Assembly (NCBI GenBank): GCA_020059915.1
Contig: JAGVBB010000003.1
Span: 40,920 to 104,919 of the forward strand
Direction of reading: 5' to 3'
Length of the DNA stretch: 64,000 bases
Source of the DNA: Minisyncoccota bacterium
Lineage (GTDB): Bacteria > Patescibacteriota > Minisyncoccia > UBA6257 > GWB1-50-10
In this document: positions 21,174 through 39,933 of the stretch, in pieces
Numbering within the stretch: position 1 is the first letter of the stretch
Layout: every line of letters starts with the position of its first letter
The notes under the pieces: generated by a model
What the model saw: the letters and a program-made list of their open reading frames with translations, nothing else
What the model was told of the DNA's origin: nothing
The model's database searches: none
Program-made: the position numbers and the translations under genes

Positions 21174-21527
21174 CTAGTTATTTGAAAGTAATACCACGAT
21201 TATAAGAAACACGAGAAGTGAAAGAAATGAATTTGCAAAAGCAAATATATAAGAGAGAAAACGTTCTCGGTTCCAGAATTCATACATGAGCACTCCATTC
21301 ATTCCCATCATAGTGAGCCCCAACAACCATATTCCCCACAAACCGCTTTTCTCCCCGAACACACTCACCTCCTGCAATGTATCAAATTTTATAACAATAG
21401 ATTCAGCAAGACGCCCGTAGTTTGTTGCGGTTAACACAAGAGAGACAACAGAAAACGCGATGCCTAAAAAAATGAGCGCTGAATATATTTTGTGGTGTTT
21501 GAAAAATGGTAGATACTTGAGCATCAA
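21174..21527 (-). CDS. hypothetical membrane protein
   Basis: 117 aa with 3-4 TM segments. It may be a leaderless mRNA, because a TATAAT lies 12 nt upstream of the ATG. Confidence 0.4.
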   Translation of the reverse strand: MMLKYLPFFKHHKIYSALIFLGIAFSVVSLVLTATNYGRLAESIVIKFDTLQEVSVFGEKSGLWGIWLLGLTMMGMNGVLMYEFWNRERFLSYIFAFANSFLSLLVFLIIVVLLSNN

Positions 21528-21582
21528 TTACTATTATAACCCACAACCCACAACCGACAACCAACAACGCGGAAAAAAAGAA

Positions 21583-21610
21583 CCCGCTAATGAGCGGGTT
21601 TTTTGAGAAA
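21583..21610 (-). terminator. intrinsic terminator overlapping the stop codon
   Basis: aacccgctaatgagcgggtt hairpin with T-runs on both strands. Confidence 0.45.
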
Positions 21611-22039
21611 ATTGATGACCGATGCCCAGCCAACCATATAAAGGATAATTGGGAGGATAAAGAATAACAGAGAAAAAAGTGATTCTCCTATCGTTGGGCT
21701 GTCTCCCAAAAATACTTTTGCCATCATATTTTGAATATCGGCCGGTAGCCACGAGGCATTTAAGTATATGATCAATTCAGTGCGGAAAAATGAGTTAGTG
21801 CTCCAGTTTCCTATTTTAAGAAATTCATTCTGTCTAAGAATTTCGTTTCTTTGTACAAGTATTGAATCAATTTCACCTTCAAATTCAATTCCATTTGCTT
21901 GGTGATAATTAACAGTTGTTTCGAACTTTTCTATTGTTGTAGAAAGTTCGTCTCGCATGGAAAATTGATCATAGATGAATTGAATCGGTAAGTATACCAA
22001 GAATACGAATAGCAGAATTCTAAAAATTTTGCGTTTCAT
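21587..22039 (-). CDS. hypothetical membrane-anchored protein
   Basis: N-terminal TM and C-terminal TM. No recognised motif. Confidence 0.4.
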   Translation of the reverse strand: MKRKIFRILLFVFLVYLPIQFIYDQFSMRDELSTTIEKFETTVNYHQANGIEFEGEIDSILVQRNEILRQNEFLKIGNWSTNSFFRTELIIYLNASWLPADIQNMMAKVFLGDSPTIGESLFSLLFFILPIILYMVGWASVINFLKKPAH

Positions 22040-22150
22040 AAATCACCTTTAAATTATTAATGATGGAGTAATTATAGCATGTACCCTTGACTTTGTCAAT
22101 ATAGTATGCTATAATGTGTACATACTTAATAATTTAATGAGGAGTAGAAA

Positions 22151-22441
22151 ATGGTAAAAATGACAACAAAAATTGGGTTCCTTGAACGAAAAATGTCGGA
22201 ACATGATTGGAAGGAAGCTGATATGCACTTGACCATCATTGATGGAGAAATCAGTCAAGCTCAATTGGAAGATTTAAAAAATGGTTTGGGAATGCCTTGT
22301 GGTATTACCAAGGTTGACGATGAAGTACTGTTTACTGATTTTATTACCGCAACTCTTATTGCTGCTGGATGGGATGCATCAACAAAATACCATAAGTTTT
22401 CCGATGGCAAAATTGATCTAAATATTTCTGTAAAATTCTAA
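22151..22441 (+). CDS. hypothetical small protein
   Basis: 96 aa, preceded by a strong TTGACT-17 nt-TATAAT promoter at 22087-22121. Confidence 0.4.
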   Translation: MVKMTTKIGFLERKMSEHDWKEADMHLTIIDGEISQAQLEDLKNGLGMPCGITKVDDEVLFTDFITATLIAAGWDASTKYHKFSDGKIDLNISVKF

Positions 22442-22650
22442 TTTCAAAAGAATATTAAGGAGTATTGATGAACAAGTTTATATATTTGCCAAATTACTGA
22501 TTCCATTAAAGCTTTGTCATTAATTTGGCATTCATAAAAGCTGACCCCTTCTTTCATGGAGGGGTTTACTATTTTTTCTCATTTTGTATACTCTTATTGA
22601 GCTTATTATTTTTAGCTAATATCTAACCGCTAAAAGCTAACAGCTGTTCT

Positions 22651-22732
22651 GCGCGGGTGGCGAAATTGGTAGACGCACTACCTTGAGGTGGTAGCGCCGC
22701 AAGGCTTGGAGGTTCAAATCCTCTCCCGCGCA
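22651..22732 (+). tRNA. tRNA-Leu (anticodon GAG)
   Basis: Cloverleaf with acceptor gcgcggg/cccgcgc, a long variable arm, anticodon loop ttGAGgt, T-loop ggttcaaatcc and discriminator A. No encoded CCA. Confidence 0.85.
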
Positions 22733-22738
22733 CAAAAA

Positions 22739-22772
22739 TAAAAACTGAGTAGTTTACCTGCTCAGTTTTTAT
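22739..22772 (+). terminator. intrinsic terminator after tRNA-Leu
   Basis: Hairpin aactgagtag-tttacc-tgctcagtt followed by a T-run. Confidence 0.5.
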
Positions 22773-22780
22773 TTCTATAT

Positions 22781-22928
22781 ATTGTGAGAGGATTTGAACG
22801 AGAAAGGGGTCGGGAAAACGGGAGTTTTCCCGTGGTGGAAGTACTGAAACCGCAAGGTGTCAGAAAATTTCGTCTGCGAAATTTTGTTCAATTCCCTCTC
22901 CCGCCTGCCTACCGGCAGGCAGGCGCAC
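22781..22928. repeat. tRNA-Leu-derived partial copies plus GC-rich hairpin
   Basis: Inverted 14-nt copy of the T-arm (gagaggatttgaac at 22786-22799). Direct partial copy of the 3' end (gttcaattccctctcccgc at 22886-22904). Nested hairpins, and the palindrome gcctgcctaccggcaggc at 22904-22921. Confidence 0.45.
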
Positions 22929-22957
22929 AAAAAATAAACCCCCAAAGGGGGTTTTAA

Positions 22958-23224
22958 TTATCTTTTGTAATGAGTGTTGTGATACTCTTCGTATCTTGGA
23001 ATATTTATATGCGCGTAGAAGTTTCTATAAAAAACTCCTTTCAATTCGCTATAAAACATTCCAGCGAGTGTTAGTGCGGAAATTCCGATTACTAATAAGA
23101 AAACCGCAAAAACAATTGGATGAAGTGAGTACAATATTGCAATTATCCAAACAGATGTTATCAGGAACATATGTGCTGTAAGGATATTGAACAATGTTTT
23201 GTCAATATACATTTCCTCTTTCAT
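22958..23224 (-). CDS. hypothetical small membrane protein
   Basis: 88 aa with two predicted TM helices. Confidence 0.35.
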   Translation of the reverse strand: MKEEMYIDKTLFNILTAHMFLITSVWIIAILYSLHPIVFAVFLLVIGISALTLAGMFYSELKGVFYRNFYAHINIPRYEEYHNTHYKR

Positions 23225-23238
23225 TGGTATCCCCTGTT

Positions 23239-23568
23239 TTATTCTGCTGAAATTTTGAAGAGCTTAGAGCTGTTTTCCGGTATTCCTGGTATTTTTGCAA
23301 GACCGGAGAAAACGTCCCAGCTTTTTTTCTTACATTCCTTGAGAAATGCGTCGTTGTCTTTTTGAAATTGCGCGGTGTATTCTGCTTTTATTATAAAGTC
23401 ACCATCTTTTAGATTCGAAAAAGGACCCGACTCGGTTACTTTCATTTGTAACGGATTTTCATTTGTCACTTCTGCGATACACAACCGAACGAATCCAGTT
23501 ATCCAGATGATAAGAAGATCTCCCACTTTTGTTGAGTAGAGGGTTTTTGTCTTATTTTTCTTTTTCAT
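23239..23568 (-). CDS. hypothetical protein
   Basis: 109-aa ORF with no recognised motif. Confidence 0.35.
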   Translation of the reverse strand: MKKKNKTKTLYSTKVGDLLIIWITGFVRLCIAEVTNENPLQMKVTESGPFSNLKDGDFIIKAEYTAQFQKDNDAFLKECKKKSWDVFSGLAKIPGIPENSSKLFKISAE

Positions 23569-23638
23569 TTCACACCTTTCCTTTTGTTAAAGATTAAGTG
23601 CTATTATGCGTTGTTTTTTATCTTTTAGCAAGTTTTAC

Positions 23639-23821
23639 TTACTGACAAGCACACTTCTCTATAACGATTTTTGCGGGTTCGTTTCCCCTTCCGTAGAAGT
23701 ATCCCAAACTGAAGAAAAACAGCCCTATAAGGGCAATTACGAGCCAAAAAAGGGCCAACTTTACCCACTGAGGAGGCTGGTGTTCGTTTGGTTCTATTGG
23801 GGGGTTTGTTGAGCTAGACAT
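23639..23821 (-). CDS. hypothetical small membrane protein
   Basis: 60 aa with one TM segment. Confidence 0.3.
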   Translation of the reverse strand: MSSSTNPPIEPNEHQPPQWVKLALFWLVIALIGLFFFSLGYFYGRGNEPAKIVIEKCACQ

Positions 23822-23956
23822 CTTTTAATTAGTATAAACAATAAGCAAATATACTGCGCAAGTAGTCTACAATTCATTTACCCACGGAGAATATTATTTT
23901 GAATAAATATGTCGGAATAAAATAAATAAATTACTGAGTAAAAGGAATCAAAAAAC

Positions 23957-24016
23957 ACACTCTATTGCATCGTTCAAATCCCTTTAGGTTGCGTTTGCAA
24001 TAGAGTGCGTTTTTTT
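23957..24016 (+). terminator. terminator-like hairpin (possible rpmA leader/attenuator)
   Basis: 13-bp inverted repeat cacactctattgca / tgcaatagagtg with a 26-nt loop containing cgttcaaatccc, followed by a T7 run. No ORF lies upstream on this strand. Confidence 0.4.
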
Positions 24017-24125
24017 ACTTTTAGGAAGATTATTTATATTTTATGGAGATCATTTATAAGAAATAATATTCGTAGTCCTTGACACAGAACGCATATCTGG
24101 ATTATTATATATCGGTTAAGAAGTT

Positions 24126-24401
24126 ATGGCACATACCAAAGCTAAAGGATCTACTAAACTAGGACGAGAGTCAGAATCAAAACGACTTGGCGTGAAGCGT
24201 TTTGATGGGCAGGTTGTAAAAGCCGGCGAAGTTTTGATTCGTCAGCGTGGAACGAAATACTACCCAGGGACAAATGTTCTTCGTGGTGGAGATGATACCC
24301 TCTATGCGAAAACTCCAGGATCAGTAAAGTTCTCAAGTAAACAAAAAAAGAGTTTCGATCGTTCGAAGAAACGAGTTACCGTAATTAATATAGTAGGTTA
24401 A
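24126..24401 (+). CDS. rpmA: 50S ribosomal protein L27
   Basis: [29 protein letters not shown]... matches the L27 consensus. There is a Lys-rich C-terminal extension of about 20 aa. Confidence 0.9.
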
Positions 24402-24407
24402 TAATAT

Positions 24408-24447
24408 AAAAAATCTCCGCGTTCTGCGGAGATTTTTGTTTTTCTAT
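24408..24447 (+). terminator. bidirectional intrinsic terminator
   Basis: aaaaaatctccgc-gttct-gcggagatttttgttttt between convergent rpmA and rplI. Confidence 0.55.
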
Positions 24448-24885
24448 CTATTCCTTTTTTACATCAACAACAATAGTTGTTTCTATTCCCTCGCCCACAT
24501 TAATTGGTACCACATGTTCCCCGATGGATTTTATTGGATGCTCTAGTAGTGCTTGAGCCTCCCCTGCCTTATATTGAACAAGTTGTTTTTCAATGTCCTT
24601 TGAAGTGATTGATCCAAATAACTCTCCCTTTTCCCCTGCTTTAAGTGTGAAGTGCAGTTTTAAATTTTTGATGGAATCCGCAAGTTTTTTTAATGTCTGT
24701 ATTTTTCTTTGGTAAGCCGCATCTTTTTCAGATTTTTCTTTTTCAATTTTTTGAATTGCTCCGGAGGTTGCCTGTACCGCAAATCCTTTTAGTATCAAAA
24801 AATTACGCGCATATCCATCGTTTATCTCTTTCACCTCTCCTTTTTTTCCAACACCTTTTATATCTTTTGTAAAAACTACTTTCAT
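24448..24885 (-). CDS. rplI: 50S ribosomal protein L9
   Basis: MKVVFTKDIKGVGKKGEVKEINDGYARNFL N-terminal L9 domain. Confidence 0.9.
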   Translation of the reverse strand: MKVVFTKDIKGVGKKGEVKEINDGYARNFLILKGFAVQATSGAIQKIEKEKSEKDAAYQRKIQTLKKLADSIKNLKLHFTLKAGEKGELFGSITSKDIEKQLVQYKAGEAQALLEHPIKSIGEHVVPINVGEGIETTIVVDVKKE

Positions 24886-24889
24886 ATGT

Positions 24890-26098
24890 TTATTTAAGTT
24901 GATCCTCTATGAGTTGAAGTGCTTTATCAAGTTGTGGATCTTTCTTTTGTTCTATATCTGTTTCTTTCATTACTACTGTTATATCCGGTTCCAATCCTGT
25001 TTTATCAATCTTTGTTCCGTCGGGAGTGAGCCAATGTGCAATAGTGACTTTCATTTTTGAGCCGTCTTTTAAATCCACAACCTCCTGAACACTTCCTTTA
25101 CCAAATGTTTTTTCTCCAATAAGTTTTGATCCATTAATATCACGGATTGCACCAGCGAGAATTTCTGCGGCAGAAGCGCTTCCCCCATTCACCAACACAA
25201 CGACAGGCATATCAACAAGCAGCCCATTTCCTGAAGCAAACCGAATTGTTTCCTCCCCCGTTCTTAGTTTTTCCTTTACTACTGTTTTTCCGGATTCCAA
25301 AAACCAACCACTAATATCTACTGCTACATCAAGAAATCCCCCTGGATTATTTCGAAGATCAAGAATGATTCCTTCTGGATTTTTATCTGCTATTTCAAAA
25401 AGTTTTTGGCGAAACAATGATGGAACGTTTGCATTGAAATTATGTAATTGAAGATGCGCAACATTCTTTCCATTAGAAAGAGTTTTTATTTCAACATCAA
25501 GTGTGGGTACCTCTATAATTGCGCGCGTGATTTTTATTTCCTTAGGTTCTTTCCATGAATTACGCATAATGAGCAATCGAACTTCTGTCCCCGGTTTTCC
25601 ACGAATAATCTTCACTGCGCTTTCCGTAGACATATTTGTAGTAGTCGTATTATCAATGCGAAGAATTCTATCTAACGGAAGAAGCCCTACTTTTTCTGCG
25701 GGATTGCCTTTTAGCGGAGAAATAATCGTTATGATGCCATCACGAAGTCCAATTTCTGCACCAATACCGCCGAACATACCATTTAAATCCTCATCAAATT
25801 TTTTTGCATCAGACGGATCAAAAAAATCTGAATATGGGTCCTCAAGTGATGCAATCATTCCACGAATTGCACCATAGAGCATTGAGTCGTCTTTAATTGC
25901 ACTCGTATCTACATATTTATTTTGAACAACATCAACTGCTTCCCAAAATAGTGAGAAGTCGGATTTAATAAGTGCGCGCGGATCGGTGATGACTATTGAT
26001 CGTTTGTTTCCATATGTATATCCAACAAACCCCGATACAATAATAATAATGAGCACAAACAGTGCACCTCCTGAAATTTTCCATTTGTTATTCCACAT
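24890..26098 (-). CDS. ctpA: carboxy-terminal processing protease (S41, PDZ-containing)
   Basis: N-terminal TM, a PDZ region, and catalytic-region motifs GGIGAEIG and VVLVNGGSASAAEILAGA. Confidence 0.85.
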   Translation of the reverse strand: MWNNKWKISGGALFVLIIIIVSGFVGYTYGNKRSIVITDPRALIKSDFSLFWEAVDVVQNKYVDTSAIKDDSMLYGAIRGMIASLEDPYSDFFDPSDAKKFDEDLNGMFGGIGAEIGLRDGIITIISPLKGNPAEKVGLLPLDRILRIDNTTTTNMSTESAVKIIRGKPGTEVRLLIMRNSWKEPKEIKITRAIIEVPTLDVEIKTLSNGKNVAHLQLHNFNANVPSLFRQKLFEIADKNPEGIILDLRNNPGGFLDVAVDISGWFLESGKTVVKEKLRTGEETIRFASGNGLLVDMPVVVLVNGGSASAAEILAGAIRDINGSKLIGEKTFGKGSVQEVVDLKDGSKMKVTIAHWLTPDGTKIDKTGLEPDITVVMKETDIEQKKDPQLDKALQLIEDQLK

Positions 26099-37366: not shown

Positions 37367-37481
37367 GACAAATTATTATTGATAGTGTTTCCCCTATTAT
37401 ACCCGATGGCTTGTGTTTTCAAAAACATTTTTGTTGAATATTTCCTTTATTTTTGGTAGTATTCGGTTGTTATTGTGAGAT

Positions 37482-37504
37482 CGCCTACCTTCGGCAGGCA
37501 GGTC
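37482..37504. repeat. GC-rich hairpin motif shared with the tRNA-Leu locus
   Basis: gcctaccttcggcaggcagg versus gcctgcctaccggcaggcagg at 22904-22924. Confidence 0.4.
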
Positions 37505-37525
37505 TAATGGTGAAATAAATAATAT

Positions 37526-37596
37526 TGCGGGATCGTCTAATGGTAGGACAGCGGACTCTGAATCCGTCAATCTTGGTTCGAATCCAGGTCCCGCAG
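37526..37596 (+). tRNA. tRNA-Gln (anticodon CTG)
   Basis: Acceptor tgcggga/tcccgca, anticodon loop ctCTGaa, T-arm cttggttcgaatccagg and discriminator G. No encoded CCA. Confidence 0.8.
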
Positions 37597-37603
37597 CACA
37601 TGA

Positions 37604-37640
37604 AAATCTGGAACACATTTGTTGTGCTCCAGATTTTTAT
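37604..37640 (+). terminator. intrinsic terminator after tRNA-Gln
   Basis: aaaatctggaacac-atttgtt-gtgctccagattttt. Confidence 0.5.
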
Positions 37641-37830
37641 TTGTAGGACACCGGATTCGAACCGCGGGCCGCAGGCTTCGAAGAGAAGCCGAAGGTCTCG
37701 AACTCAGCAGAGTGAGAGGCGAATCCAGGTCCCGCAGCCAATTTTTAAGCGTAAAAATTGCGTCGAAACGAGCACGCTTTCGACGTTGAATCATATTATT
37801 TGCACCGTAAGGTGCAAATATAACAGGAGT
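37641..37830. repeat. tRNA-Gln-derived partial copies and hairpin cluster
   Basis: 19-nt direct copy of the tRNA-Gln 3' end (cgaatccaggtcccgcagc at 37711-37729). Inverted T-arm-like ccggattcgaacc at 37651-37663. Hairpins ggcttcgaagagaagcc, cgtcgaaa...tttcgacg and atttgcacc-gtaa-ggtgcaaat. Confidence 0.45.
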
Positions 37831-37993
37831 ATAAATCACGCAGAAATTAGCACAATTTCTGCGACATTTGTTTAGTATATATTTTTTCCGGATTGTTGAA
37901 TGGCGAATCCAGGTTCAAAAATGCACGCGAATGCGTGCATTTTTTGGTGTTGATAGAATTGTATATTTGTTGGATAATTTATTCAATAAGTAT

Positions 37994-38521
37994 ATGGATT
38001 ATATAGATTTATTAGATAATACTTTTTTTGGAACCCTTTTTGCTGGAAGTCTCATTGCAATTTTGGGATATATCTTTTATAAAAAACAAAAAATATTGGA
38101 TATTTTCTATAGAAAAGAGGAAGAAAAACAAAAAAAGTGTGATATTCTTCTAAAACATTTAAGAATTTCTGTGGATGACTGTAGGGCTCAAGTGGACGTC
38201 CGTAATGGAAAAAATTCTATTGCAAAAAATATATATGATTTTATAGAATCTACGTATTCAAATTTTATTTCTAGATCAAACTCAATTAGATTTCGAAATT
38301 ATGTAGACAAGATTAATGATTCATTTGATGAATTAAAACTTTTTTTAATTCCTGAAGATAAGTACAAAACAGAAAGAAATGAACTTCAAAATTTAATACC
38401 CTCAATCACCTTTTATTTGGCAGGAGTTGATATTTTAGAGGAAAAAAATGTAGTTGAACTTGAAAAAAAATTACAAGAAGCAGAGAATATTTTAAAAAAA
38501 ATTGGAAAAGTAAAAGACTAA
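37994..38521 (+). CDS. hypothetical membrane-anchored coiled-coil protein (island gene 1)
   Basis: Start reassigned to MDYIDLL. One N-terminal TM, then a Lys/Glu-rich helical region. Very AT-rich coding sequence. Confidence 0.4.
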   Translation: MDYIDLLDNTFFGTLFAGSLIAILGYIFYKKQKILDIFYRKEEEKQKKCDILLKHLRISVDDCRAQVDVRNGKNSIAKNIYDFIESTYSNFISRSNSIRFRNYVDKINDSFDELKLFLIPEDKYKTERNELQNLIPSITFYLAGVDILEEKNVVELEKKLQEAENILKKIGKVKD

Positions 38522-38529
38522 TTAGAATC

Positions 38530-39456
38530 ATGGACGAAAAATTAAAATTATTTGTAATGGGGCATGGGAATGCTTTTCATTCGAGGGTTATTTCTAAACT
38601 TCGAACTTTGGGTTGGAGTGTTATGGTAAGTCCATTTTATCGAGATAATGCCACTGGTAAGGCGAGAGAGGCTGATATTATTGCGGAAAAAGAAGTAAAA
38701 TTTGGCATGGATGGAAATTCGAATGCTAGCAATGGTTTCTTTTTAATACGATTAGTTATTGAGTGTAAATATGTTAAGGACCCTATTATTTTTTGGTTTG
38801 ACAAAAAAGATGCCACAGCTACTGAAGAGAGAATTATAAAAGATATTAGTATTTTTCAAAATTCAAAAAAAAATACCTCGATAAAAAAGCACCATTGGTA
38901 TGAGTCAGAAGAAGCCGCAAAATTATTTGCCACTTTCAACCAAAACAAAGAAGAACGACAATTTGAAAATGAAATTATTTTTTCTTCCGTTGATAAAGTC
39001 CTCAATTGTTTGATAAACTATAGATCAAAGCCCTCAATAATCACCTCTCCAATTTCTCCAGACCATTGTTTTTATAAAAAATTAAATCCGATTATTATTA
39101 CGTATCCCATTATTATTTTGGACAGTTTTTCTAAACTATATAGAACAGAAATATCATCACAAACAGATCAAATTACAAATTTAAATGGGGCTGTAAATTT
39201 TGATATAGAAGTTAATTATGAATATGAACAAGGTATTTTTGGCGGCGAACATCCAAAAGTTAGTCATCACCCCTATTTGTCTATTAGAGTAAAAATGCCA
39301 GGAGAAACCGAGCCTGAAGAGCCTAAAACATGGAGTGAATATAAAAATATGAATTTTGAATATTTCTTACTTGACGTCACTTGTATTGAGAAATTAGATG
39401 ACTATTTAGAAAAATTAAAAAATAAGGATTTAAGAGCAGCGCTTAATTTTGTCTAA
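38530..39456 (+). CDS. Mrr-cat (restriction endonuclease type IV-like) domain protein with unknown C-terminal domain (island gene 2)
   Basis: N-terminal 90 aa FHSRVISKLRTLGWSVMVSPFYRDNATGKAREADIIAEKEV...FFLIRLVIECKYV fit the Mrr_cat pattern (D...DIIAEK...ECK is a PD-(D/E)xK core). The C-terminal 190 aa or so are not recognised. Confidence 0.55.
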   Translation: MDEKLKLFVMGHGNAFHSRVISKLRTLGWSVMVSPFYRDNATGKAREADIIAEKEVKFGMDGNSNASNGFFLIRLVIECKYVKDPIIFWFDKKDATATEERIIKDISIFQNSKKNTSIKKHHWYESEEAAKLFATFNQNKEERQFENEIIFSSVDKVLNCLINYRSKPSIITSPISPDHCFYKKLNPIIITYPIIILDSFSKLYRTEISSQTDQITNLNGAVNFDIEVNYEYEQGIFGGEHPKVSHHPYLSIRVKMPGETEPEEPKTWSEYKNMNFEYFLLDVTCIEKLDDYLEKLKNKDLRAALNFV

Positions 39457-39462
39457 TTAATT

Positions 39463-39933
39463 ATGAATGAATTATCTTATAAAGCAGTAGATTTTATAAA
39501 AGAAATTCGAAGTAAAATCCAGTTTCTTGTTACTGTACAAATCTTCTTTTCGGGGGTTATGTATGCTTTTTATGACGCCATTGGTAGTGAGGTGATAAAA
39601 GATGGTACAAATACTCTTTTTTGGGGTATTGGTGTAGCGTTTTGTTTAATAAACTATTTAATGATTGGAATTCTTGAGGAGTCAAAAGAAAGAATGTTTC
39701 GTTGGATAAATATTAGTATCTCAATAAACATTGCATGCTTTATATTACCTTTTGTTATTTTAGCGCTGGTAGTGAGAAATCCTCTTCCCAGTTTTTATAA
39801 CTGGCCGTTTATTATTTCTTTTGGAGGAGCAATTTGGATGCCGATAGTTACATTTTCAACCATTATTGGTGCCTCATATTGGAATATTTTTTTATGGATC
39901 AACAAGTTACTCAAAAATATAACTAAAAAATAA
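39463..39933 (+). CDS. hypothetical 4-TM membrane protein (island gene 3)
   Basis: 156 aa with four predicted TM helices, 6 nt downstream of the nuclease gene. Confidence 0.45.
   Translation: MNELSYKAVDFIKEIRSKIQFLVTVQIFFSGVMYAFYDAIGSEVIKDGTNTLFWGIGVAFCLINYLMIGILEESKERMFRWINISISINIACFILPFVILALVVRNPLPSFYNWPFIISFGGAIWMPIVTFSTIIGASYWNIFLWINKLLKNITKK

Follow-up and report, generated by a model that had tools for sequence, protein, structure and literature searches.

The block behind the tRNA-Leu(GAG) gene in the 64-kb window analyzed here (64,000 nucleotides of contig JAGVBB010000003.1) is an intact copy of a recurrent family of gene-less, hairpin-rich units, 100-190 bp long, that lie just 3' of tRNA genes in the Candidate Phyla Radiation (CPR, or Patescibacteria). 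With moderate confidence, we take positions 22734-22904 to be a complete member of a family of gene-less insertion modules of this size placed immediately 3' of such genes. The best reading of these modules is as non-autonomous miniature insertion units that target the segment of tRNA genes from the T-loop to the 3' end. We found no description of such a family in the literature, and the class is apparently undescribed.

An initial annotation had regarded the block as either a decayed or excised element or a tRNA-derived structured RNA. The first proposal does not hold, as the block is a complete recurrent unit, with a core conserved in sequence and through compensatory changes behind both tRNA-Leu and tRNA-Gly, and a second unit of like design lies behind tRNA-Gln in the same window. 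The second proposal holds in part: both arms derive from the tRNA and the tRNA-sense strand folds, but the core has no homology to tRNA. The evidence consists of a duplication with an inverted copy, core homology and compensation behind different tRNAs, arms matched to their hosts, occupied and empty sites, turnover, and strand asymmetry.

The module behind tRNA-Leu

The first element of each module is a terminator in type A and a conserved leader hairpin in type B. This is followed by a 5' arm antisense to the T-loop and T-stem of the host tRNA, at times reaching the acceptor 3' strand, then by a purine-rich core of two to four hairpins, and finally by a 3' arm in which the T-loop-to-discriminator part of the tRNA is repeated. 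The tRNA-Leu locus of the window has a type A module with the following parts, in which L plus a number, here and below, labels a comparison locus.

22651..22733, plus strand: tRNA-Leu(GAG), the host gene, with no encoded CCA (ARAGORN; Rfam RF00005, 53.1 bits)
22712..22743, plus strand: copy 1, from the T-loop to the discriminator and the A-rich trailer, the segment that recurs downstream both inverted and direct (repeat alignment)
22736..22774, no strand: A-run, 17-bp hairpin and T-run, resembling a bidirectional intrinsic terminator; left part of the module
22786..22799, plus strand: 5' arm GAGAGGATTTGAAC, antisense to the T-loop and the T-stem 3' strand; 5' strand of the closing helix
22811..22832, plus strand: core hairpin 1, CGGGAAAAC-GGGA-GTTTTCCCG
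22844..22863, plus strand: core hairpin 2, CTGAAACC-GCAA-GGTGTCAG, with G-C changed to A-U in L197 and L208
22864..22885, plus strand: core hairpin 3, AAAATTTCG-TCTG-CGAAATTTT; in L197 AAAATTTTGC-GGGA-GCAAAATTTT, with C-G changed to U-A
22886..22904, plus strand: 3' arm GTTCAATTCCCTCTCCCGC, forming the 3' strand of the closing helix; it repeats the tRNA in sense orientation, starting at G53 and running into the acceptor 3' strand
22902..22925, no strand: GC-rich palindrome CGCCTGCC-TACC-GGCAGGCAGGCG, which splits the displaced acceptor strand
22923..22938, plus strand: GCGCACAAAAAATAAA, the rest of the displaced tRNA 3' end and trailer, orthologous in L085
22936..22954, no strand: bidirectional terminator, which also ends a convergent 88-aa gene

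The landmarks of the initial annotation were all recovered: an intact tRNA with its terminator, two partial copies of the tRNA end, nested hairpins between them, and a palindrome and final hairpin behind. The 14-mer GAGAGGATTTGAAC matches the reverse complement of the tRNA segment 22712-22725 at 100% and is the sole further match to that segment in the window, even when two mismatches are allowed. The 3' arm aligns to GTTCAAAT-CCTCTCCCGC of the tRNA with one mismatch and one extra base. These similarities exceed chance, as dinucleotide shuffles of the downstream 300 nt reached the direct-copy score in 2 of 3000 cases and the inverted-copy score in 1 of 3000. The inverted copy had been recorded as a curiosity; it is instead a defining part: all members have it as the 5' strand of their closing helix.

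In the predicted fold of the tRNA-Leu module, the two arms and three hairpins meet in a four-way junction. The closing helix (22786-22799 with 22886-22904) contains one T/T mismatch and one bulged C. Folding of 22775-22960 gives a minimum free energy of -73 kcal/mol (z = -5.6), and none of 200 shuffles was as stable. Beyond the 3' arm, the copy resumes past the palindrome, where GCGCACAAAAAATAAA repeats the tRNA end and trailer GCGCACAAAAATAAAA (22728-22743); the tRNA 3' end is thus copied over a longer stretch, which the GC-rich palindrome splits. The insert is flanked by a direct repeat, 22712-22743 upstream and 22886-22904 plus 22923-22938 downstream.

Both flanking hairpins have the form of an intrinsic terminator, a GC-containing hairpin followed by a T-run, and the one at 22936-22954 has it on both strands. 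These terminators leave the arms and core unexplained. The hairpin at 22736-22774 is retained in L086 with compensatory changes. The similarity of the window to L263 and L085 resumes at 22936-22954, which is probably the original terminator of tRNA-Leu.

Several other identities were considered for the block. ARAGORN and Rfam return only the two normal tRNAs of the window. A transfer-messenger RNA, a second or split tRNA, and an intron-containing tRNA were rejected on this result and on the lack of a T-stem partner for the 3' arm. Two open reading frames (ORFs) of 56 and 57 aa, at 22775-22945 on the minus strand and 22784-22957 on the plus strand, cross the module hairpins and the tRNA copies and were judged spurious for that reason, no homology search having been made with them. 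Rfam gave no match at gathering score, none relevant at E<=10 over 22500-23100, and none at E<=1 in eight related loci. Known ribozymes, riboswitches, and small RNAs were set aside accordingly; the best hit, the ylbH leader, scores 25 bits against a 50-bit threshold and spans the terminator only.

A second module behind tRNA-Gln

The only other tRNA gene in the window also hosts a module:

37526..37597, plus strand: tRNA-Gln(CTG), the host gene (ARAGORN, Rfam)
37603..37638, no strand: terminator hairpin after tRNA-Gln
37646..37738, plus strand: the second module as a whole
37646-37663, plus strand: 5' arm GGACACCGGATTCGAACC, an antisense copy of the T-arm
37664-37719, plus strand: structured core of 56 nt, CCGCAG-hairpin-CGAAGG
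37720-37738, plus strand: 3' arm CGAATCCAGGTCCCGCAGC, identical to the tRNA at 19 of 19 positions
37904..37914, plus strand: CGAATCCAGGT, one more copy of the tRNA-Gln T-arm, older and degenerate, with a terminator behind it

No shuffle in 3000 reached the score of the direct copy, and none in 3000 that of the inverted copy. The likeness of this module to type B is by motif only. Three ORFs without a Pfam match follow it (37868-39933).

Recurrence across CPR tRNA genes

A metagenome scan for the tRNA-Leu 3' end yielded at least 120 loci, which were pooled with CPR genome loci fetched via the neighboring CtpB gene. We scored a tRNA as module-bearing when a cognate inverted copy was followed 30-200 nt later by a cognate direct copy. 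Such pairs were found behind 13 of 298 usable tRNAs among the matches listed, and 20 controls on the same 298 tRNAs with a non-cognate tRNA end gave 0-2 such loci (mean 0.5). The hosts in this survey are tRNA-Leu, Gln, Gly, Val, and Ser; inspection outside the count added tRNA-Arg (L215) and tRNA-Glu (L043). All nameable element-bearing loci are CPR (Colwellbacteria, Yanofskybacteria-like, and Patescibacteria). The window organism belongs to the Parcubacteria, its nearest named relatives being Candidatus Jorgensenbacteria, with CtpB proteases 54-56% identical.

At least two core families were distinguished. The type A core of the window is 85% identical over 86 nt to that of L197, behind tRNA-Leu (E 1.7e-18), and 79% identical over 58 nt to that of L208, behind tRNA-Gly(GCC) (E 2.6e-7); L209, at a tRNA-Leu, is more distantly related. 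Six predicted type A pairs show double compensatory changes, and hairpins 1 to 3 stay paired; for example, CTGAAACC/GGTGTCAG is replaced by CTAAAACC/GGTTTTAG, and GGGAAAAC/GTTTTCCC by GGGGAGA/TCTCCCC. The flanks of core hairpin 1, GGGGTC...GTGGNGGAA, are the best-conserved type A sequence, and L209 has two compensatory pairs in this hairpin.

Type B modules occur at tRNA-Leu (L180/L200, L186, L225, L157, L142, L085, and L263) and at tRNA-Ser (L222), tRNA-Val (L161), and tRNA-Arg (L215). They begin directly after the discriminator with CAGCGAAT..., and their leader hairpin has a conserved CTGC loop. The leader is 100% paired in 7 sequences, with both sides changed in 5 of 9 pairs, a covariation score reached by none of 500 shuffles. 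The core motif is CCGGAG-hairpin-CGAGGCGG, with repeated CGAG.

The arms follow the host tRNA, including an A/G variant of the T-loop and the T-stems of Gly, Ser, Val, and Arg. Within both type A and type B, the sequences adjoining the arms are conserved and the arms themselves match the local tRNA. A universally conserved bulge in the closing helix was rejected as a family feature; bulges are common, yet absent in L142, L222, L086, L043, and L209. An invertible segment between the inverted arms was likewise discarded, as all type A and type B cores share one orientation relative to the tRNA.

Direct 3'-end copies ~85 nt downstream were also seen behind CPR tRNAs for Gln and Lys (L005, L031 4531-4640, and L009). 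In L005, on the reverse strand downstream of tRNA-Gln 2843-2914, the repeat is perfect over 59 nt, including 41 nt of trailer. The motif CCAGAGGACG...CGCCTCAGGCG is common to the three loci and could be the sign of a third type of core.

Probable insertion, empty sites, and turnover

The initial annotation had likened the duplicated tRNA end to the attachment (att) sites attL and attR left by integration. Related loci bear this out, as the downstream copy in relatives retains the original CCA and the flanking DNA of the empty site. The DNA past the 3' arm of the occupied locus L225 (CCATTGAAGAAATTGC...) matches the DNA directly after the tRNA in three loci without the module, with 94% identity to L111, 96% to L202, and 90% to L221, and the identity begins inside the repeat. 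In L180, L225, and L157, the leader directly follows a tRNA without CCA, and the CCA follows the 3' arm instead. The downstream copy is thus the displaced original end, and the present 3' end of the tRNA came with the module. The direct repeat is perfect over 18-19 nt in L180, L186, L225, L161, and the tRNA-Gln module of the window.

A comparison of syntenic loci, which had been suggested as a check, identifies the tRNA-Leu site as a turnover hotspot among close relatives. With flanking genes 78-93% identical, and a tRNA-Leu 98% identical to that of L263, the same tRNA is followed by three different contents: type A in the window, type B in L085 and L263, and a third arrangement in L086, where a window-like terminator and 5' arm precede an unrelated core and then a type B remnant. 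The window and L085 become similar again at 22893, inside the 3' arm, which indicates that replacement junctions fall in the tRNA-derived segment. Where copies stand in tandem, at tRNA-Gln in the window and in L086, they are more degenerate with distance from the tRNA. Among the relatives compared, no empty site was found in the window's own lineage, only replacement.

These patterns suggest the following course of events. A module would recombine, in the manner of att sites, with the T-loop-to-3'-end segment of a tRNA gene, bringing a 3' end that replaces that of the tRNA and, for type A, a new terminator as well. The original 3' end, trailer, and terminator would be displaced downstream, to 22886-22954 in the window, and, by analogy with type B members, copy 1 of the tRNA-Leu end (22712-22743) was probably supplied by the inserted module. 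Later modules would enter beside the tRNA while earlier ones are pushed out, truncated, or excised, a process expected to produce cassette-like replacement as well as increasingly degenerate copies in tandem. On the tRNA-sense strand, the arms would pair and close the multi-branched fold, which may act either as an RNA or as a folded single-stranded att site. A recombinase encoded elsewhere presumably moves the modules.

Several points weigh against this insertion model. No recombinase, transposase, or reverse transcriptase was found adjoining any module, and Pfam detected no recombinase in 20 ORFs, about one third of those in the window (16.4-27.3 kb and 36.4-48.2 kb, except L27, L9, and CtpB at 24126-26098, which were identified from Pfam matches only). 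No integrase lies within or next to the module, which holds no fitting ORF, and we saw no excised circle and no autonomous parent of the modules. An origin from a phage or plasmid was rejected after scans of viral contigs gave 0 matches for the tRNA-Leu core and 0 for the type B leader; with the type A motif, they gave only chance or GC-rich matches and one phage tRNA. The survey sample is biased to tRNA-Leu(GAG) loci. In addition, the 3' arms of the window's tRNA-Leu module and of L197 show one common deviation (an A-to-T change and an additional base) that is unlike a freshly displaced tRNA end, so that part of the 3' arm may belong to the module and the crossover may lie further 3'. Finally, simple att recombination leaves unexplained how both arms come to match a new tRNA; template switching between quasi-palindromic sequences across the terminator could help to keep the 5' arm identical to the tRNA.

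Strand asymmetry and a possible RNA gene

In 12 of 15 elements, the tRNA-sense strand gives a more stable fold than its complement. Unpaired bases on that strand are 78% purine, and its hairpin loops, as read from the folds with no computed count, are often GNRA or GAA. Together with the covariation, these features indicate selection for the folding of one strand, that of tRNA polarity, whether as RNA or as single-stranded DNA.

The same features could reflect a host RNA gene, in which the module is a structured small RNA from the tRNA transcription unit, comparable to a 3' external transcribed spacer RNA or to a processing signal that resembles a tRNA. The closing helix would then copy the T-stem and acceptor 3' strand so that RNase Z, RNase P, and the CCA-adding enzyme release or stabilize the RNA, and the antisense arm might pair with the tRNA. 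We regard this alternative as serious but tentative, and on balance we doubt it. It is compatible with the insertion model, since an RNA of this kind can be encoded by a mobile module. Precursors without CCA are cut by RNase Z directly after the discriminator, exactly where the type B leader starts, and type B modules must share the transcript of their tRNA because no terminator separates the two. The better folding of the tRNA-sense strand with its purine-rich unpaired bases, the stems kept by compensatory changes, and the conserved CTGC loop of the leader also fit an RNA. In contrast, type A modules, including that of the window, lie between strong bidirectional terminators, and no convincing promoter was found. 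Unrelated cores replace each other in close relatives, which is unusual for a housekeeping RNA. The covarying stems of the type B leader switch between Watson-Crick pairs essentially without G-U intermediates (0 of 63 cells).

Less probable alternatives

The insertion model has a more radical version, in which the modules are protein-less mobile units whose own folded strand picks its target by base pairing. The antisense arm would be a guide for the T-arm segment of the tRNA, as gene or transcript, and would be re-templated at each new tRNA, making the modules a new, CPR-specific class of nucleic-acid-guided tRNA-homing elements. We consider this version unlikely. The modules might even be integrated copies of circular molecules of ~150-190 nt, viroid-like or dumbbell-shaped.

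Still less probable is an origin by decay, in which a larger genomic island or prophage once lay between attL and attR and the block is its stump, with leftover terminators as hairpins. Variable small genes do lie downstream of tRNA-Leu in relatives (163 aa in L263; 123 aa and 83 aa in L086), and in L131 an insert of 1.9 kb that contains genes separates tRNA-Leu from a 22-nt copy of the 3' end of this tRNA. However, the extra gene of L263 is outside the module, past its 3' arm, and separate deletions are not expected to leave the same closed architecture repeatedly. Nor does the stump account for a homologous core with compensatory changes across genomes and tRNAs. This reading is largely refuted by recurrence and covariation. 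An integrase or island context was also sought among the Pfam-scanned ORFs, which gave RmuC, SecA, LigT, a Na/Ca exchanger, MgsA, and others, and no recombinase near either tRNA.

Replication template switching at the terminator palindrome (quasi-palindrome extension) with local duplication, without mobility or function, is very improbable as the source of the whole block: the perfect match of the type A 5' arm to the tRNA, its near-symmetric placement across the terminator (in the window, 10 nt on one side and 11 nt on the other), and the nearly perfect 40-bp palindrome formed in L209 by tRNA end, terminator, and arm would fit, but the conserved core, type B leader, direct copy, empty and occupied sites, and same core behind different tRNAs are left unexplained.

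Relation to known systems

In topology, the modules resemble the tyrosine integrase elements that use the T-loop-to-3'-end segment of a tRNA. In mycobacteriophage Ms6, the 26-base attP core equals tRNA-Ala from T-loop to 3' end, and the 7-base T-loop is the likely site of exchange; the element restores the tRNA and leaves a partial 3' copy downstream, and a changed core retargets integration to another tRNA (PMC1762012). The modules differ from this class in being only 100-190 bp long, in carrying no genes, and in having no integrase nearby among the 20 ORFs scanned. They also have an inverted core copy, and their multi-hairpin fold is conserved through compensatory changes, a feature for which double-stranded att sites have no need.

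Folded single-stranded recombination sites offer a second comparison, with CTX-phi attP(+) used by XerCD and integron attC used by IntI (PMC3442271, PMC4792948). The duplex of our modules copies the tRNA T-arm and not dif, no dif-like site was found, nor an Xer gene among the scanned ORFs, and the closing helix of 10-18 bp is too short for two recombinase-binding sites. The likenesses are that inverted target-like copies 60-100 nt apart pair within one strand into a target-like duplex, that structure is conserved above sequence, with bulges or mismatches in many closing stems, and that the topology is cassette-like, with direct core repeats flanking the unit and an inverted copy inside. The attC consensus R''(RYYYAAC)...R'(GTTRRRY), compared with no attC covariance model, is absent: only AAC/GTT stands at the inner ends of type A arms (TTTGAAC/GTTCAAT), and type B arms lack even AAC/GTT. 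Unlike integron cassettes, no unit contains an ORF, and no IntI is present among the scanned ORFs.

Like miniature inverted-repeat transposable elements (MITEs) and cis-mobilizable integrative remnants (CIMEs), the modules are small, non-coding, structured, present or absent between relatives, and presumably moved in trans. Unlike MITEs, they have no fixed terminal inverted repeats, as the arms vary with the host tRNA, and the flanking duplication is not of fixed length (~10-24 nt at the 3' arms; 59 nt in the related arrangement of L005). We know of no parent transposon or integrative element.

Among RNAs that lie behind or mimic a tRNA, the 3'ETS-leuZ sponge RNA, mascRNA, and plant mitochondrial t-elements have features in common with the modules, namely the position, a fold on the tRNA-sense strand, and ends that could be set by RNase Z or RNase P. 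Those RNAs, by contrast, are not known to have insertion polymorphism or an antisense T-arm copy, and type A modules are insulated by terminators. Retron msr-msd RNA is of similar size and has a closing helix of terminal inverted repeats around several hairpins; the modules differ in having no adjacent reverse transcriptase gene, in their tRNA-derived arms, and in the lack of an Rfam retron match. Box C/D or H/ACA guide RNAs, a retroviral-type primer-binding site, IS110 bridge RNA, casposons, and group II introns were rejected for want of the defining boxes, an adjacent protein gene, 3'-terminal CCA pairing, or a suitable size.

Implications for CPR genomes

The genomes of CPR bacteria are tiny and, in the usual descriptions, contain little mobile DNA or non-coding RNA. 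The modules add to these genomes a widespread, fast-turnover class of structured, gene-less units attached to tRNA genes. If they are moved by recombination, they mark a tRNA-specific recombination system yet to be found and provide a natural minimal att cassette of ~150 bp that restores its own target gene. If the fold acts as RNA, they would form a new tRNA-linked RNA family with a built-in antisense to the T-arm. For annotation, their consequences are spurious ORFs (here 22775-22945 and 22784-22957), partial tRNA matches, and contig breaks at tRNA genes, and the modules could serve as strain-level markers of CPR populations.

Neighboring features

The GC-rich hairpin CCTGCCTACCGGCAGGCAGG (22902-22925) occurs beyond the tRNA-Leu locus. 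An unrelated Magasanikiibacteriota contig contains a 22/22 copy (L076 4422-4443), and a variant lies at 37481-37505 in the window, ~25 nt upstream of tRNA-Gln. Its exact 20-mer is present in 12 stretches (L098-L109) of 11 viral contigs with GC contents from 33% to 70%, some of which hold it two or three times. The window palindrome is thus a copy of a short hairpin sequence present in very diverse genomes, and we found no description of the 20-mer in the literature. A comparable interruption was seen behind tRNA-Arg in L215 (3420-3470), where a 22-nt insertion cuts the 3' arm of the module (CGATTCCCTCC, then atcacgagagggattccacgaa, then GGGACAC). This split resembles that of the window 3' arm by the palindrome (CCCGC before it and GCGCAC after it), and the displaced acceptor strand may be an insertion hotspot.

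The stretch from tRNA-Leu to a conserved 109-aa gene carries differing small hypothetical genes in close relatives (window 22958-23224; L263 4312-4803; L086 735-1361), encoding proteins of 88/89 aa, of 163 aa and 89 aa (L263), and of 123 aa and 83 aa (L086). It is a small variable-gene hotspot. The 1.9-kb insert of L131 (6229-8269), from a higher-GC organism, lies before a full 22-nt copy of the 3' end; it contains ORFs of 226 aa and 358 aa and, judged by size with no Pfam scan, no obvious integrase-sized gene.

A block of ~140 nt (CCATTGAGGAAATTGCGAGTTTTGAAGGTTCGCCTCGCTTCGCTCGGCGAC...) is 78-96% conserved directly after tRNA-Leu in L111, L202, L221, L144, and L165, and in L225 it follows the 3' arm; several of these contigs are dissimilar elsewhere. 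It has no Rfam match at gathering score in L111 and L221 and could be another conserved non-coding element. In the Jorgensenbacteria locus L006 (4134-5100), a membrane-protein gene directly follows tRNA-Leu(GAG); by eye only, it appears homologous to window 21174-21527, which has a weak DUF1648 match. Relative to L27, L9, and CtpB, the tRNA-Leu of L006 has the opposite orientation (window 21174-24401 compared), indicating a local inversion or rearrangement around tRNA-Leu in the window lineage.

Group I introns (Rfam RF00028, 77 and 65 bits) were found in tRNA-rich stretches of two CPR contigs that also bear modules, L186 (7542-7771) and L208 (2611-2846). The intron of L208 lies only ~100 nt upstream of tRNA-Gly, the host of the type A module there.

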